Both the position numbers and the translations under genes were made by a program. The notes below the pieces were generated by a model. The model had not been told where the DNA came from, did no database searches, and was given only the letters and a program-made list of their open reading frames with translations. Of a stretch of 64,000 nucleotides of DNA, positions 4,382 through 20,559 are shown in pieces; positions within the stretch are counted from its first letter, which is position 1, and each line of letters opens with the position of its first letter. This DNA is from Escherichia coli (GTDB lineage Bacteria > Pseudomonadota > Gammaproteobacteria > Enterobacterales > Enterobacteriaceae), in the NCBI RefSeq assembly GCF_003018235.1, contig NZ_CP027437.1; one strand, written 5' to 3'.

Positions 4382-5794
4382 ATGTCACTCAGTCGGCGTC
4401 AGTTCATTCAGGCATCGGGGATTGCACTTTGTGCAGGCGCTGTTCCCCTGAAGGCCAGCGGAGCCGGGCAACAGCAACCGCTACCCGTTCCGCCGCTGCT
4501 TGAATCTCGCCGTGGGCAACCGCTGTTTATGACTGTACAACGTGCGCACTGGTCATTTACGCCAGGGACACGCGCGTCGGTTTGGGGAATCAATGGTCGT
4601 TACCTGGGGCCGACTATCCGCGTCTGGAAGGGCGACGATGTTAAGCTTATTTACAGCAACCGCCTGACAGAAAATGTCTCAATGACGGTGGCCGGGCTAC
4701 AGGTACCTGGCCCGCTGATGGGCGGTCCGGCACGCATGATGTCGCCAAACGCTGACTGGGCACCCGTACTGCCTATTCGCCAGAACGCAGCTACTCTGTG
4801 GTATCACGCCAATACTCCCAACCGCACGGCTCAGCAGGTCTATAACGGCCTTGCCGGAATGTGGCTGGTGGAAGATGAAGTCAGCAAGTCGCTGCCTATC
4901 CCCAACCATTATGGTGTGGATGATTTTCCGGTCATTATCCAGGATAAACGGCTGGACAACTTTGGTACGCCAGAATACAACGAACCGGGAAGCGGCGGCT
5001 TTGTTGGTGACACACTGCTGGTTAACGGTGTACAAAGCCCGTACGTTGAAGTCTCGCGTGGCTGGGTGCGCTTGCGTCTGTTGAACGCGTCGAACTCTCG
5101 ACGCTATCAACTACAGATGAGCGATGGTCGCCCGTTACATGTGATTTCTGGCGATCAGGGATTCCTGCCCGCTCCTGTATCGGTGAAGCAACTTTCGCTA
5201 GCACCGGGCGAGCGTCGTGAGATTCTGGTGGATATGAGCAACGGTGATGAAGTGTCGATCACCTGTGGCGAAGCGGCGAGCATTGTTGATCGTATTCGTG
5301 GCTTCTTTGAGCCATCCAGCATTCTGGTTTCTACGCTGGTGCTAACGCTGCGCCCAACCGGCCTTCTGCCGCTGGTCACAGACAGTCTTCCGATGCGCTT
5401 GCTGCCAACTGAAATCATGGCTGGTTCGCCGATTCGCAGTCGTGATATCAGTCTGGGTGATGACCCGGGTATTAATGGACAACTGTGGGACGTTAACCGT
5501 ATTGATGTCACCGCGCAGCAAGGAACGTGGGAACGCTGGACGGTACGCGCGGACGAGCCGCAAGCGTTCCATATTGAAGGCGTGATGTTCCAGATCCGTA
5601 ACGTGAATGGCGCGATGCCGTTCCCGGAGGACAGAGGCTGGAAAGATACCGTTTGGGTTGACGGACAAGTGGAGCTGCTGGTTTATTTCGGTCAGCCTTC
5701 CTGGGCGCACTTCCCGTTCTACTTCAACAGTCAGACGCTGGAAATGGCGGACCGTGGCTCGATAGGGCAACTGTTGGTCAATCCGGTACCGTAA
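4382..5794 (+). CDS. ftsP: Cell division protein FtsP (SufI), multicopper-oxidase fold, Tat-exported
   Basis: 470-aa ORF; twin-arginine signal MSLSRRQFIQASG; synteny after plsC. Confidence 0.9.
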   Translation: MSLSRRQFIQASGIALCAGAVPLKASGAGQQQPLPVPPLLESRRGQPLFMTVQRAHWSFTPGTRASVWGINGRYLGPTIRVWKGDDVKLIYSNRLTENVSMTVAGLQVPGPLMGGPARMMSPNADWAPVLPIRQNAATLWYHANTPNRTAQQVYNGLAGMWLVEDEVSKSLPIPNHYGVDDFPVIIQDKRLDNFGTPEYNEPGSGGFVGDTLLVNGVQSPYVEVSRGWVRLRLLNASNSRRYQLQMSDGRPLHVISGDQGFLPAPVSVKQLSLAPGERREILVDMSNGDEVSITCGEAASIVDRIRGFFEPSSILVSTLVLTLRPTGLLPLVTDSLPMRLLPTEIMAGSPIRSRDISLGDDPGINGQLWDVNRIDVTAQQGTWERWTVRADEPQAFHIEGVMFQIRNVNGAMPFPEDRGWKDTVWVDGQVELLVYFGQPSWAHFPFYFNSQTLEMADRGSIGQLLVNPVP

Positions 5795-5799
5795 TCTTC

Positions 5800-5824
5800 A
5801 TACTCGCCCGAGGAGGGCGAGTAT
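5800..5824 (+). terminator. Stem-loop after ftsP (tactcgccc-gagga-gggcgagta)
   Basis: 9-bp perfect stem immediately 3' of the ftsP stop; T-rich tail is weak. Confidence 0.45.
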
Positions 5825-5904
5825 GGAATACCTTTCGATTTCTCTTTCGTTCCGGCTTATAATCCCCGGCCTTTGATTATTTTTTTATCATTTCTGGAAG
5901 CAAA

Positions 5905-8124
5905 ATGAGCTCTATCTCCCTGATCCAACCGGATCGCGACCTGTTCTCCTGGCCGCAGTACTGGGCCGCCTGTTTTGGACCGGCACCGTTTTTGCCGATG
6001 TCTCGTGAAGAGATGGATCAACTTGGCTGGGATAGCTGCGACATCATTTTGGTTACTGGCGACGCGTATGTCGATCACCCAAGCTTCGGGATGGCGATTT
6101 GCGGTCGTATGCTGGAAGCGCAGGGCTTTCGCGTCGGGATCATCGCCCAGCCGGACTGGAGCAGCAAAGACGACTTTATGCGTCTGGGTAAACCGAATCT
6201 GTTTTTTGGTGTTACTGCTGGCAACATGGATTCGATGATCAACCGCTATACCGCCGATCGCCGTTTACGTCATGACGATGCCTACACGCCGGATAACGTC
6301 GCGGGTAAGCGACCGGATCGCGCCACACTGGTTTATACCCAGCGTTGTAAAGAGGCGTGGAAAGATGTGCCGGTGATCCTCGGCGGTATTGAGGCTAGTC
6401 TGCGCCGTACCGCGCATTATGATTACTGGTCCGATACCGTGCGCCGTTCCGTGCTGGTGGATTCCAAAGCCGACATGCTGATGTTCGGTAACGGTGAGCG
6501 TCCGTTGGTGGAGGTGGCGCACCGTCTGGCGATGGGCGAGCCGATTAGTGAAATCCGCGATGTGCGTAATACTGCGATTATCGTAAAAGAGGCGTTGCCA
6601 GGCTGGAGCGGCGTGGATTCCACCCGTCTCGATACCCCAGGGAAAATCGACCCGATCCCGCATCCGTATGGCGAAGATCTGCCGTGCGCGGATAACAAAC
6701 CTGTTGCGCCGAAAAAGCAGGAAGCGAAAGCCGTAACCGTGCAGCCGCCGCGCCCGAAACCGTGGGAAAAAACCTACGTATTGCTGCCTTCTTTCGAGAA
6801 AGTGAAGGGCGATAAAGTGCTGTACGCCCATGCTTCGCGTATTCTGCACCACGAAACTAACCCAGGCTGCGCCCGCGCATTGATGCAAAAACATGGCGAC
6901 CGCTATGTGTGGATCAACCCGCCTGCTATTCCGCTCTCTACCGAAGAGATGGACAGCGTTTTTGCGCTGCCGTACAAGCGCGTGCCGCATCCGGCCTATG
7001 GCAATGCTCGTATTCCGGCTTACGAAATGATCCGTTTCTCGGTCAACATTATGCGTGGCTGCTTTGGCGGCTGCTCTTTCTGTTCTATCACCGAGCACGA
7101 AGGGCGCATTATTCAGAGCCGTTCGGAAGATTCGATCATCAATGAGATCGAAGCGATCCGCGACACCGTTCCAGGTTTTACGGGCGTAATTTCCGATCTC
7201 GGTGGGCCAACTGCCAACATGTATATGTTGCGCTGCAAATCGCCACGCGCTGAGCAAACCTGCCGTCGTTTGTCGTGCGTTTATCCGGATATTTGTCCGC
7301 ATATGGACACTAACCACGAACCGACGATCAACCTCTATCGCCGTGCGCGTGATCTGAAAGGCATTAAAAAGATCCTGATCGCTTCCGGCGTACGTTATGA
7401 CATAGCCGTGGAAGATCCGCGCTATATCAAAGAGCTGGCGACCCATCACGTCGGCGGTTATCTGAAGATTGCCCCGGAACATACCGAAGAAGGGCCGTTG
7501 TCGAAGATGATGAAGCCGGGTATGGGCAGCTATGACCGCTTTAAAGAGTTGTTCGATACCTACTCGAAACAGGCAGGTAAAGAGCAGTATTTGATCCCGT
7601 ATTTCATCTCGGCACACCCCGGTACGCGCGATGAAGATATGGTGAATCTGGCGCTGTGGCTGAAAAAGCACCGCTTCCGCCTCGACCAGGTACAGAACTT
7701 CTACCCGTCGCCGCTGGCTAACTCGACCACTATGTATTACACCGGCAAAAACCCGCTGGCGAAGATTGGTTATAAAAGTGAAGACGTCTTTGTACCGAAG
7801 GGCGACAAGCAGCGTCGCCTGCATAAAGCGTTGTTGCGTTACCACGATCCGGCAAACTGGCCGTTAATCCGCCAGGCGCTAGAAGCGATGGGCAAAAAGC
7901 ATCTGATTGGCAGCCGTCGCGATTGCTTAGTGCCTGCGCCAACCATTGAAGAGATGCGTGAGGCTCGTCGCCAGAACCGCAATACCCGTCCGGCGTTGAC
8001 TAAACATACGCCGATGGCGACCCAGCGTCAGACGCCTGCTACGGCAAAAAAAGCGTCGTCTACGCAATCTCGTCCGGTGAATGCTGGTGTGAAGAAACGC
8101 CCTAAAGCGGCGGTTGGACGTTAA
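5905..8124 (+). CDS. ygiQ: UPF0313-family radical SAM protein
   Basis: 739-aa ORF; CxxxCxxC cluster (CFGGCSFCS); length and synteny match E. coli YgiQ. Confidence 0.85.
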
Positions 8125-11831: not shown

Positions 11832-12788
11832 ATGCTACAAAATTGCGCACAATCAAATTGCCGCATTATTCCTAAGAAATTACGCGATATGAAACGTGAA
11901 GAGATTTGCCGCTTGCTGGCGGATAAAGTTAATAAACTGAAAAATAAAGAAAATGAATTGTCAGAGCTGTTGCCCGATGTGCGTTTGTTGTATGGCGAGA
12001 CGCCTTTCGCACGTACACCGGTAATGTACGAGCCTGGCATCATAATTCTCTTTTCCGGGCATAAAATCGGTTATATCAATGAACGCGTGTTTCGTTATGA
12101 TGCCAATGAATACCTGCTGCTGACGGTGCCGTTGCCGTTTGAGTGCGAAACCTATGCCACGTCAGAGGTGCCGCTGGCAGGGTTGCGTCTCAATGTCGAT
12201 ATTTTGCAGTTACAGGAACTGTTGATGGACATTGGCGAAGATGAGCATTTCCAGCCGTCGATGGCAGCCAGCGGGATTAACTCCGCCACGTTATCAGAAG
12301 AGATTTTATGCGCGGCGGAGCGGTTACTCGACGTGATGGAGCGACCACTGGATGCGCGTATTCTCGGCAAACAGATCATCCGTGAAATTCTGTACTACGT
12401 GCTGATCGGACCTTGCGGCGGCGCGTTACTGGCGCTGGTCAGTCGCCAGACTCACTTCAGCCTGATTAGCCGCGTGCTGAAACGGATTGAGAATAAATAC
12501 ACCGAAAACCTGAGCGTCGAGCAACTGGCGGCAGAAGCCAACATGAGCGTATCGGCGTTCCACCATAATTTTAAGTCTGTCACTAGCACCTCGCCGTTGC
12601 AGTATTTGAAGAATTACCGTCTGCATAAGGCGCGGATGATGATTATCCACGACGGCATGAAAGCCAGTGCGGCAGCGATGCGCGTCGGTTACGAAAGCGC
12701 ATCGCAATTTAGCCGTGAGTTTAAACGTTACTTTGGTGTGACGCCGGGGGAAGATGCGGCAAGAATGCGGGCGATGCAGGGGAATTAA
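11832..12788 (+). CDS. yqhC: AraC-family transcriptional activator of yqhD-dkgA
   Basis: 318 aa from internal ATG at 11832; C-terminal AraC HTH; divergent from yqhD. Confidence 0.85.
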
Positions 12789-12792
12789 ATAC

Positions 12793-12816
12793 GTTCCCGG
12801 TACAGCAACCGGGAAC
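12793..12816 (+). terminator. Stem-loop after yqhC (gttcccgg-N8-ccgggaac)
   Basis: 8-bp perfect inverted repeat directly 3' of the yqhC stop. Confidence 0.5.
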
Positions 12817-12834
12817 GGGGAAAATCGTCAGGCG

Positions 12835-13488
12835 TTACAGTATTTTTTTTTTAATCACCACAAACAGCGTGCCTAACAAGCCAGCGGTTAACAAGGCAAT
12901 TGGCAGGATCATCAGGAACGTCATTACCTGATCTTCATGGCGTTTAACGAACGGAATCATACTTAAGGCATAGCCGAAACTGGTTACCACGCTGACCCAC
13001 AGCAATCCGCTTAACCAGTTGAAAAACTGGAAACGGCGGTTTGGCAAACCGGAAATTCCCGCCATGGTTGGCAGCAGCGTACGGACAAATGCAAGAAAAC
13101 GTCCAGCCAGCAGCGCCAACAGACCGTGGCGGTCAAACATGCAGGTGGCGCGCTGGTGATATTTAGCGGGAAGCTGTGCCAGCCAGCCTTTCACCGTTTT
13201 GGTATTCCCTAACCAGCGCCCCTGAATATAACTTAACCAGCAGCCCAGACTTGCTGCGGCGGTCAGAATCGCAATCGTAGGCAGAAAATCCATAACCCCC
13301 TGGGCAATCAATGCGCCAGCCAATATCAACAAGCTGTCGCCTGGCAAAAATGAGGCGGGCAGCAGGCCGTTTTCTAAAAACAGCGTGGCAAACATGACAA
13401 AGTAAACAACGCTAACAATATGAGGATCCGCCAGCGCGGCAAAGTCGTGTTGCCAGAGCGCAGCGATGATATCTTGAATAACAGCCAT
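12835..13488 (-). CDS. yghB: DedA-family inner-membrane protein; C-terminus altered relative to the expected form (see findings)
   Basis: 217-aa ORF ending KKKIL; a 10-nt homopolymer lies at the 3' end and the adjacent frame gives KKKYCNA-stop (219 aa). Confidence 0.85.
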
Positions 13489-13627: not shown

Positions 13628-14815
13628 TTATACAATTCGCGCAAAACCGGCGTCCAGATCGGCAATCAGATCGTCGACATCTTCCAGACCAATATGCAGG
13701 CGAATCAAGGTCCCGCTAAAATCGATCTCGCCTTGCGGGCGAATGGCGGCGATATGTTCTGGTTGATTTGCCAGGATCAACGATTCATAACCGCCCCACG
13801 AGTAGGCCATGCTGAATAAACTGAAGTTATCCAGATAGTTCGCCAGCTCTTCATCATTGAGCTTTTTCTTAAGCACAAAGGAAAATAGCCCGCTGCTACC
13901 TGTAAAGTCTCGTTTCCAGAATTCGTGGCCTTTACTGCCAGGCAGAGCAGGGTGGTTAACTCGCGCTACTTGCGGATGTTCTGCCAGCCATTTGGCCACT
14001 TTCAGACTGCTTTCATGATGTTGACGCAAACGCACACCTAATGTGCGCAGGCCACGGCTGGTTATATAGGCGGTATCGGCATCGACCATCTGGCCCATCA
14101 GGTAGGCATTCTCCCGTAGTTGCTCCCAGCAACGGGCATTGCACACCGCAGTGCCAATCATCGCATCTGAATGCCCAACCAGATATTTGGTGGCGGCCTG
14201 AATAGAAACATCGATGCCAAAATCCAGCGCCTTAAACAGCACACCGGCTGCCCAGGTGTTGTCGATCATAATGATGGCATCCGGCACCACACTGCGTACG
14301 GCGGCAACAATCGCCGGAACGTCGTGGACTTCCATGGTGATGGATCCTGGGGATTCCAGAAATACGATTTTGGTGTTTGGCTGTAGATACTTAACGATAT
14401 CGGCACCAATCAGCGGATCAAACCATGATGTCGTTACGCCCAGTTTGCTGAGGATTTTGCTACAGAAATCCTGGCTCGGTTCGTAGGCGGTATTGGTCAT
14501 CAACACATGATCGCCCTGTTCAACAAAAGCAAGAATGGAATTGGCAACCGCAGCCGCCCCGCAAGGAAACAGCACGCAACCTGCGCCACCTTCCAGTTCG
14601 CACATCGCTTCTTGTAATGAGAAGTGCGTTAGCGTTCCGCGCCGTCCATAGAACAACTCGCCATTGGCGCGATTGCGCGTCGCATGTTTTTTGGCTTCCA
14701 CACTGTCAAAGACCAGCGAAGAGGCGCGCTGAATCACGCTATTTACCGCGCCGAGAGTGTATTTTTTGCTGCGTCCTGCATTGACCAGTTGAGTATCAAG
14801 TTGTTTGTCTGCCAT
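13628..14815 (-). CDS. metC: Cystathionine beta-lyase (PLP-dependent)
   Basis: 395 aa from ATG at 14815 ([15 protein letters not shown]); PLP-enzyme motifs. Confidence 0.9.
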
Positions 14816-14833
14816 GTTGGGATTCCTGTTTTT

Positions 14834-14857
14834 ATACGTCTGGATGTCTAAACTAGC
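14834..14857 (-). promoter_or_regulatory. Putative MetJ operator (tandem met boxes) upstream of metC
   Basis: Minus strand reads agacatcc agacgtat, two tandem 8-mers near the AGACGTCT consensus; metC is known to be MetJ-regulated. Confidence 0.45.
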
Positions 14858-14977
14858 ACGAATGAGGTCATGCGCATCCTGAAGAATTGGCATAAAGCAG
14901 AAAAATTTCGCAAAAGGTGTACTGGTGACTTTTTTACTGCGTAAACGCAAAGAAAAGAAAGCAAAGGTACGGCAGTA

Positions 14978-15006
14978 TGCAAATAGTAATGAGAACGACT
15001 ATCAAT
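14978..15006 (+). promoter_or_regulatory. Possible Fur box in the exbB promoter
   Basis: aaatagtaatgagaacgactatc loosely resembles GATAATGATAATCATTATC; exbBD is known to be Fur-regulated. Confidence 0.3.
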
Positions 15007-15066
15007 TCGACGTCGTTTTGATATTATTGTGCGCAGATTTTGTGACTTGCGTCCTGGAGATACACA

Positions 15067-15801
15067 GTGGGTAATAATTTAATGCAGACGGACCTTTCCG
15101 TCTGGGGTATGTATCAGCACGCCGATATTGTTGTTAAGTGCGTGATGATTGGGCTGATTCTGGCCTCCGTAGTCACCTGGGCAATCTTCTTCAGTAAGAG
15201 CGTAGAGTTCTTCAACCAGAAGCGTCGCCTGAAGCGCGAACAGCAACTTCTGGCTGAAGCACGCTCCTTAAACCAGGCCAATGATATCGCCGCTGATTTT
15301 GGTAGCAAAAGCTTAAGCCTGCATTTGCTCAATGAAGCGCAGAATGAGCTGGAACTGTCAGAAGGCAGCGACGATAACGAAGGTATTAAAGAACGTACCA
15401 GCTTCCGTCTGGAGCGTCGGGTCGCCGCAGTAGGTCGTCAAATGGGCCGCGGTAACGGTTATCTGGCAACCATCGGCGCGATTTCGCCGTTCGTTGGTCT
15501 GTTTGGTACGGTCTGGGGCATCATGAACAGCTTTATTGGTATCGCGCAAACGCAGACCACTAACCTGGCAGTCGTTGCGCCGGGTATTGCAGAAGCTCTG
15601 TTAGCAACGGCAATCGGCCTCGTGGCAGCGATTCCGGCGGTCGTTATCTATAACGTATTTGCACGTCAGATTGGCGGCTTTAAAGCGATGCTGGGTGATG
15701 TCGCAGCGCAGGTATTGTTGCTGCAAAGCCGTGACCTGGATCTGGAAGCCAGCGCCGCTGCGCATCCGGTTCGTGTCGCACAAAAATTACGCGCAGGATA
15801 A
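15067..15801 (+). CDS. exbB: Biopolymer transport protein ExbB (TonB energising complex)
   Basis: 244-aa ORF, GTG start, MotA/TolQ/ExbB family. Confidence 0.9.
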   Translation: MGNNLMQTDLSVWGMYQHADIVVKCVMIGLILASVVTWAIFFSKSVEFFNQKRRLKREQQLLAEARSLNQANDIAADFGSKSLSLHLLNEAQNELELSEGSDDNEGIKERTSFRLERRVAAVGRQMGRGNGYLATIGAISPFVGLFGTVWGIMNSFIGIAQTQTTNLAVVAPGIAEALLATAIGLVAAIPAVVIYNVFARQIGGFKAMLGDVAAQVLLLQSRDLDLEASAAAHPVRVAQKLRAG

Positions 15802-19074: not shown

Positions 19075-19965
19075 ATGATGCCGCGTCTGACCGCTAAAGA
19101 TTTCCCACAAGAGTTGCTGGATTACTACGACTATTACGCTCACGGGAAAATTTCGAAACGTGAGTTCCTCAACCTTGCGGCGAAGTATGCGGTAGGCGGG
19201 ATGACGGCATTAGCGTTGTTTGATTTGCTCAAGCCAAATTATGCGCTGGCGACTCAGGTAGAGTTTACCGACCCGGAAATTGTTGCTGAGTACATCACGT
19301 ATTCTTCACCAAATGGTCACGGCGAGGTGCGGGGTTATCTGGTGAAGCCCGCAAAGATGAGCGGCAAAACGCCAGCCGTAGTGGTGGTGCATGAGAATCG
19401 TGGACTGAATCCGTATATCGAAGATGTGGCACGGCGAGTGGCGAAGGCGGGGTATATCGCCCTGGCACCTGACGGCTTAAGTTCCGTTGGAGGTTATCCG
19501 GGTAATGATGATAAAGGTCGTGAGCTGCAACAGCAGGTTGATCCAACCAAACTGATGAATGATTTCTTTGCCGCAATTGAGTTTATGCAACGCTATCCGC
19601 AAGCGACAGGCAAAGTGGGTATTACCGGATTTTGCTATGGCGGTGGCGTATCGAACGCGGCGGCTGTCGCGTATCCGGAACTGGCCTGCGCGGTGCCGTT
19701 TTATGGTCGACAGGCACCCACCGCCGATGTGGCGAAGATTGAAGCGCCTTTACTGCTGCACTACGCGGAACTGGATACCCGAATCAACGAGGGCTGGCCC
19801 GCTTACGAGGCGGCGTTGAAAGCCAATAATAAGGTCTATGAGGCGTATATCTATCCGGGGGTTAATCACGGATTCCATAATGATTCCACGCCCCGTTATG
19901 ACAAATCTGCCGCCGATCTTGCCTGGCAAAGGACGCTGAAATGGTTCGATAAATATCTCTCCTGA
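19075..19965 (+). CDS. yghX: Dienelactone hydrolase-family protein, intact
   Basis: 296 aa from ATG at 19075, preceded by RBS gaggag; alpha/beta-hydrolase motif GFCYGG. Confidence 0.75.
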   Translation: MMPRLTAKDFPQELLDYYDYYAHGKISKREFLNLAAKYAVGGMTALALFDLLKPNYALATQVEFTDPEIVAEYITYSSPNGHGEVRGYLVKPAKMSGKTPAVVVVHENRGLNPYIEDVARRVAKAGYIALAPDGLSSVGGYPGNDDKGRELQQQVDPTKLMNDFFAAIEFMQRYPQATGKVGITGFCYGGGVSNAAAVAYPELACAVPFYGRQAPTADVAKIEAPLLLHYAELDTRINEGWPAYEAALKANNKVYEAYIYPGVNHGFHNDSTPRYDKSAADLAWQRTLKWFDKYLS

Positions 19966-20371: not shown

Positions 20372-20559
20372 TCAAACATACGTATTATCTTGCTTTAATT
20401 AATTACACTAATGCTTCTTCCCTTCGTTTTAGCGCCCCGCCGCAGTATCATGATATCGATAACCATAATAAATGTGTGGTAAATGGCGCATCGATCGCAT
20501 TATTGATTTTGCGATTGAGGCAAAATATATGCCAGGTCTTCGCAACGGAATAACTATAA

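Follow-up and report, generated by a model that had tools for sequence, protein, structure and literature searches.

The run of ten A residues at the 3′ end of yghB in the 64,000-nucleotide stretch of Escherichia coli DNA analyzed here (the window) is, with high probability, a genuine and heritable allele of this gene (A10), generated by a +1 replication slippage within the run of nine A residues (A9) that is the norm of the species. The features of the locus, in window positions, are the following.

12843..12852, minus strand: A10 homopolymer, coding for Lys-Lys-Lys plus the first base of a shifted Ile codon; in the species, A9 is the norm.
12835..13488, minus strand: yghB ORF, 217 aa, DedA-family inner-membrane protein ending VIKKKIL; TAA stop at 12835-12837.
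12828..12830, minus strand: canonical TGA stop of the A9 allele (frame ...KKKYCNA-stop), out of frame in the window.
12792..12817, minus strand: terminator-like hairpin found by a terminator scan, 10 pairs, 7 of them G-C, followed by TATTTAATT.
11889..12788, plus strand: yqhC, convergent downstream neighbour of yghB, 299 aa in the PGAP call; it served as a lineage marker.
13631..14815, minus strand: metC, upstream neighbour of yghB, 395 aa, used to find sister assemblies.

The gene had been named yghB in an earlier note made on this DNA. The name is backed by the metC-yghB-yqhC synteny, by the Pfam VTT domain of the product (PF09335, VTT_dom; amino acids 48-173, E=3e-21, 76.6 bits versus a cut-off of 33.9, profile positions 1-122 of 123), and by RefSeq, where practically all complete E. 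coli genomes have at this locus a gene named "DedA family general envelope maintenance protein YghB". The 10-A run and the VIKKKIL end of the ORF, both reported in that note, were confirmed in the window sequence and in the list of open reading frames. The run reads as T10 on the plus strand, being A10 on the coding strand of yghB. The TGA stop of the A9 allele sits 7 nt downstream of the stop used by the window gene, and the hairpin is placed further on, between the convergent genes yghB and yqhC. The possibility that T10 formed part of an intrinsic terminator of yqhC was considered and discarded: the run lies past the hairpin by 27 nt, and a terminator came out of the scan on the minus strand only.

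The tract is the longest homopolymer of the 64 kb, the runners-up being runs of 8 nt. Since a first-order Markov model predicts 0.36 A/T runs of 10 or more nucleotides per 64 kb, the existence of such a run is not statistically remarkable. The relevant point is its +1 length with respect to the species norm.

The products expected from different tract lengths were obtained by in silico editing of the tract in the window. They are given below together with the number of blocks that carried each exact protein, on the canonical backbone, in a larger public assembly index.

A9: 219 aa, ending ...KKKYCNA; 102,678 index blocks.
A10: 217 aa, ending ...KKKIL; 3,979 index blocks.
A8: 233 aa, reading through the terminator hairpin; 1,731 index blocks.
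A7: 216 aa, ending ...KKIL, in the same IL frame as A10; 1,478 index blocks.
A11: 234 aa, reading through the terminator hairpin; 115 index blocks.
A5, A6, A12 and A13: various proteins; 1-5 contigs each.

The editing agrees with the supposition of the earlier note that with nine A residues yghB would end in KKKYCNA and encode 219 aa, and the length which that note gave for K-12 YghB, also 219 aa, is in agreement with the gene of MG1655, where the tract is A9 and the gene measures 660 nt. The A9 product of the edited window is identical to WP_000268419.1, the protein of the closest 781-nt haplotype. All tract lengths from A5 to A13 are present in public assemblies, with A9 far ahead of A10, followed in descending order by A8, A7 and A11; A6 is nearly absent (4 contigs).

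A survey of complete RefSeq E. coli genomes (5,402-5,426 genomes, short queries centred on the tract) gave a similar picture. The 84-nt A10 query matched 34 genomes exactly and another 21 in ungapped form with one mismatch in the flanks; five out of five sampled one-mismatch genomes turned out to be A10 with a flanking SNP. A10 is thus present in about 55 genomes, around 1% of the complete ones. The A9 query matched 3,364 genomes exactly, and most of the remaining ones differ through SNPs in the flanks, while A7 occurs in 2 complete genomes and A8 in 7. In the comparison with other yghB alleles proposed by the earlier note, A9 is therefore the prevailing form and A10 a minority one, both among complete genomes (3,364 versus about 55) and among index blocks (102,678 versus 3,979).

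The other tract lengths deserve some separate comment. A7 is about as common as A8 in the index despite needing a -2 change, and it is tagged E. coli O157:H7 by some sources. Its abundance suggests either that a real A7 lineage has expanded clonally or that errors of this kind are systematic. Several tract lengths (A7 and A8) occur within a single project, ETEC17xx, and A7 was also seen in long-read assemblies that additionally have frameshifts in metC and yqhC. A8 is found in the complete-genome records of the K-12 laboratory derivatives ER1709, ME8067 and HST04, while MG1655 is A9; most likely, these three cases are uncorrected long-read homopolymer errors in genomes deposited as complete. 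Some of the A7 and A8 records look like errors.

Concerning the effect of the extra A on the protein, the window YghB departs from the canonical E. coli length and C-terminus (219 aa, ...KKKYCNA). Residues 1-215, KKK included, are as in WP_000268419.1, and the YCNA tail is replaced by IL. The changed residues fall after the last membrane helix and the KKK triplet, outside the VTT/DedA domain. The four charged residues located at the tips of the re-entrant helices of YghB and essential for it, E39, D51, R130 and R136 (PMC10127716), are all present in the window protein. The tails that follow the basic triplet in orthologues are diverse (YCNA, FSNA, YSNA, YCDA, YCSA, VSA, VRIA, VRLA, FASK, FA, TQ and AA), and Atlantibacter, Cronobacter and Franconibacter have two-residue tails in a YghB of 217 aa. 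Because orthologue tails vary and some of these proteins have 217 aa, a KKK triplet followed by a two-residue end lies inside the natural range of the family, and the tail is not family-defining in other genera. Escherichia, Salmonella, some Klebsiella and Scandinavium have the YCNA tail in common, an identity that could reflect some constraint on the tail.

As the VTT domain, the four charged residues, the last helix and the KKK triplet are unchanged, it seems reasonable to interpret that A10 YghB is probably functional and the change near-neutral. Near-neutrality would explain why A10 originated repeatedly and why it persists in a few per cent of the alleles. It is improbable, on the other hand, that the extra A means a loss of function, i.e., that yghB is a pseudogene in this lineage and its loss is tolerated through the redundant paralogue YqjA. 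PGAP labels every A10 allele examined as a 'frameshifted' pseudogene, which agrees with a loss, but the replacement is limited to the last four residues, 213-215 of the 219 being unchanged. According to work with YqjA, its last, C-terminal helix probably forms an oligomer interface, a point on the side of a loss; however, the change in YghB comes after the helix and the KKK triplet and leaves the VTT domain and the essential residues intact, and two-residue tails are natural in orthologues. The redundancy of the two paralogues would make the loss of one of them tolerable, and YghB and YqjA are reportedly redundant for growth at 42 °C, a result said to be that of Thompkins et al. in 2008. Against a loss of function, no secondary decay, in the form of further frameshifts or stops, was found in any A10 allele examined. 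A lesion of yghB described in the course of isoprenol-tolerance evolution (PMC7653855) was also considered; it is a 15-bp promoter deletion and does not concern the A10 tract.

Another alternative is that the isolate is truly A9 and that the tenth A entered the window assembly through a miscall of the homopolymer. Errors are classically frequent in homopolymers of 9-10 nt, clearly error-prone assemblies do vary at this tract (the A7 and A8 records of the ETEC17xx project and of the K-12 laboratory derivatives), the A7 long-read assemblies carry further frameshifts in metC and yqhC, and in the 781-nt comparison the 18 best-matching complete genomes depart from the window in nothing but their A9. 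This alternative was confronted with the relatives of the window isolate, which were searched for with the exact protein sequences of the window MetC and YqhC.

The exact MetC sequence is lineage-restricted (46 index blocks). Twenty-four MetC contigs were read, of which 13 had a 219-aa YghB and 11 had no recorded YghB protein. The representative of the group without YghB record, GCA_011972655.1, has 100% identity with the window along 7,188 nt, A10 included. The representative of the 219-aa group, the Logan assembly of SRR3033418, shows zero mismatches to the window apart from A9, and GCA_012768955.1 also matches the window except for A9. The 318-aa, Prodigal-style form of YqhC was found in 23 contigs, 18 grouped with the 217-aa YghB and 5 with the 219-aa one, a split which is the look-up's own grouping of 'similar places' with one Logan example shown per group; by this grouping, A10 is the commoner form in the window lineage. 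The Logan assembly of SRR30570690, representative of the 217-aa group, has 100% identity with the window along 3,957 nt, again with A10 included. A9 and A10 were not told apart by the look-up with the PGAP-called YqhC, since no protein is recorded for a pseudogene.

A10 is thus reproduced, within the same lineage, by one assembly from NCBI and by Logan assemblies made from other runs. In the close relatives the length difference is confined to the mononucleotide run, with zero mismatches in flanks of 3.9-7.2 kb. The occurrence of A10 in independent assemblies of the window lineage is to be expected of an inherited allele and not of a one-off miscall. At least two of them, one from NCBI and one from Logan and a different run, have flanks identical to those of the window, 18 of the 23 Prodigal-called lineage contigs go with the 217-aa form, and the 217-aa protein is present in 3,979 blocks, mostly on draft-sized contigs of 20-200 kb. 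All this makes a miscall quite improbable. The earlier note had left open whether the tract was an artefact or a natural variant: the evidence favours a natural, inherited variant, since A10 is found in independent assemblies of the lineage on an identical background, and, judging from these sequence comparisons, the A10 of the window is probably not an artefact.

The A9 isolate SRR3033418 differs from the window in 3 SNPs and 2 one-base indels over 20,958 nt, so it is a close relative of the window isolate and not the same clone. Concerning the lineage as a whole, none of the 5,426 complete RefSeq E. coli genomes matches the first 25 kb of the window at more than 99.0%, while dozens of drafts have the exact MetC and YqhC; therefore, the lineage is one sampled by surveillance sequencing, apparently with no closely related complete RefSeq genome.

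Several observations were made on the neighbourhood of yghB. The start of yqhC is called differently by different sources: PGAP places it at 11889 (299 aa), whereas it is at 11832 (318 aa) in Prodigal-type calls and also in the record of MG1655, of 957 nt. This disagreement influenced which assemblies were found by the protein look-ups. At window position 20449, in the yghW-hybO intergenic region upstream of the hydrogenase-2 operon, the window has one G fewer than SRR3033418 (GTATC-ATGATATCGAT versus GTATCGATGATATCGAT), a one-base indel outside homopolymers. The gene yghX (about window 19080-19960) is annotated as frameshifted in strain WCHEC050613 (18616-19500 of the fetched locus) and is intact, with 295 aa, in SRR3033418 (17246-18133 of its locus), the close relative of the window lineage; it is another small frameshift polymorphism near yghB. 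Finally, exbB (about window 15070-15800) bears in RefSeq the product name 'tol-pal system-associated acyl-CoA thioesterase' (WP_000527864.1 and WP_000527844.1), while its product matches Pfam MotA_ExbB in the fetched loci (5287-6021; 14372-15106 in the WCHEC050613 locus). The thioesterase name looks like a propagated naming error.

Beyond the window lineage, the A10 loci fetched belong to at least seven distinct haplotypes, 1-2.7% apart, and the A10 genomes with one flank mismatch have their SNPs at three different sites. The presence of A10 on many haplotypes and the differing flank SNPs indicate that A10 arose many times. With respect to its inheritance, the 12 complete genomes which, in a 25-kb comparison, were nearest to WCHEC050613, itself an A10 strain, were all A10 (12/12), and they are of varied sources and hosts. 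This, together with the several A10 assemblies of the window lineage, is the behaviour of a heritable allele, at the limited resolution afforded by 25-kb haplotypes: in that test of low resolution, A10 genomes showed about 3-5 mismatches, and A9 genomes about 5 plus a gap. The mouse isolates NGF1 and NC101 have A10 in common.

The size of the contigs was also considered. Those larger than 1 Mb account for 1.1% of the A10 blocks and 7.3% of the A9 blocks, and most A10 contigs are of 20-200 kb, a profile confounded by source because Logan contigs are short and PGAP drops the proteins of pseudogenes. A10 is not concentrated in long-read assemblies.

As to the origin of the run, the codons of the KKK triplet were compared among relatives with the outgroup states taken from a scan of species representatives that yielded 10 loci, none of them of E. 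coli, E. albertii or E. fergusonii. The three codons are AAA AAG AAA in Salmonella enterica (three subspecies) and in Klebsiella oxytoca, K. grimontii and K. michiganensis, AAG AAG AAG in Pseudescherichia vulneris and in one further Enterobacteriaceae genome, and AAA AAA AAA in E. coli and in Escherichia sp. MOD1-EC7003. Among the relatives sampled, the pure A9 run is exclusive to Escherichia. From these codon states, a single synonymous change from AAG to AAA gave rise to a slippage hotspot in the Escherichia lineage, as this one G-to-A change leaves the run uninterrupted. The sequence of events would then be as follows. With the three Lys codons that follow the last helix all being AAA in Escherichia, the run is an uninterrupted A9; slippage of the strands during replication, which we infer, would have added one A in an ancestor of the sub-lineage of the isolate; and the extra A shifts the frame after KKK, changing YCNA-stop to IL-stop and the length from 219 to 217 aa. 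The slippage mechanism is the simplest one, taken from general knowledge of homopolymer indels.

It is very improbable that the tract is a functional switch, this is, a contingency (phase-variable) site which toggles by A9/A10 between two YghB C-termini and is kept by selection, with transcriptional slippage possibly amplifying the toggling. The finding in public assemblies of all lengths from A5 to A13, the recurrence of A10 on many backgrounds, and the maintenance of a pure A9 in Escherichia though a synonymous AAG would break the run, are what a switch would give; in addition, runs of nine or more A residues are known RNA-polymerase slippage sites in E. coli. However, the tract is at the extreme 3′ end of the gene, A9 and A10 both give near-full-length products that differ in 2-4 non-conserved terminal residues with no on/off effect, A9 makes up more than 90% of the alleles, each sister isolate is fixed for one state, and the tail has no known phenotype. 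It is equally hard to believe that the Escherichia run is kept as a mutational, perhaps transcriptional-slippage, switch between the YCNA tail, which contains Cys, and the IL tail, which is hydrophobic. If it were so, the tail, on the cytoplasmic end of the oligomerisation helix of YghB, would have a selectable effect on envelope maintenance, and the recurrent, clade-fixed A10 and A7 alleles, both in the IL frame, would be products of selection and not of drift.

Taking A10 as a heritable slippage allele, it can be compared with known systems. K-12 YghB (b3009, 219 aa; DedA, COG0586, putative undecaprenyl-phosphate flippase group) shares with the window gene the locus, the synteny, the domain and the essential residues, and differs in having A9 instead of A10, YCNA instead of IL, and 219 instead of 217 aa, the stop of the window gene being 7 nt further upstream. 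Homopolymer slippage indels in general are alike in the change of one base within a run of nine or more, in their recurrence, in the presence of neighbouring lengths in the population, and in the 'frameshifted' flag received in RefSeq. Unlike the usual ones, the window tract is so near the stop that the 'frameshift' costs only four residues. Since the tract adjoins the stop, it behaves as a tolerated polymorphism of protein length and not as a knockout. Phase-variable loci of Neisseria, Haemophilus and Campylobacter also have a coding homopolymer that varies between close isolates, but the yghB tract is 3′-terminal, has no on/off outcome, and one state dominates in the species. The YghB proteins of Atlantibacter (KKKFA), Cronobacter (KKKTQ) and Franconibacter (KKRAA) have the same 217 aa and the same layout of last helix, basic triplet and two residues as the window protein. 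In those genera, however, the short tail is a fixed state with no frameshift involved, while in E. coli IL belongs to a minority allele that arises from a +1 shift. So, it can be said that the A10 of yghB is an ordinary slippage polymorphism, not novel in kind.

The A10 allele was already present in public databases, both as protein records (such as ANJ39533.1 and BCL02050.1) and under the PGAP "frameshifted" flags. This flag is a formal call of disruption, based on length and frame alone. A10 YghB is almost certainly made, intact apart from its last residues, and the pseudogene flag on A10 yghB is probably misleading. In practice, about 1% of the complete E. coli genomes are deprived of YghB in their proteome by the RefSeq flag, and analyses of pan-genome, pseudogene counts or gene essentiality that trusted it would wrongly score yghB as lost. 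The A10 allele adds nothing new on the function of DedA proteins. The site is a natural example of how a frameshift placed beside the stop codon can act as a neutral length polymorphism.
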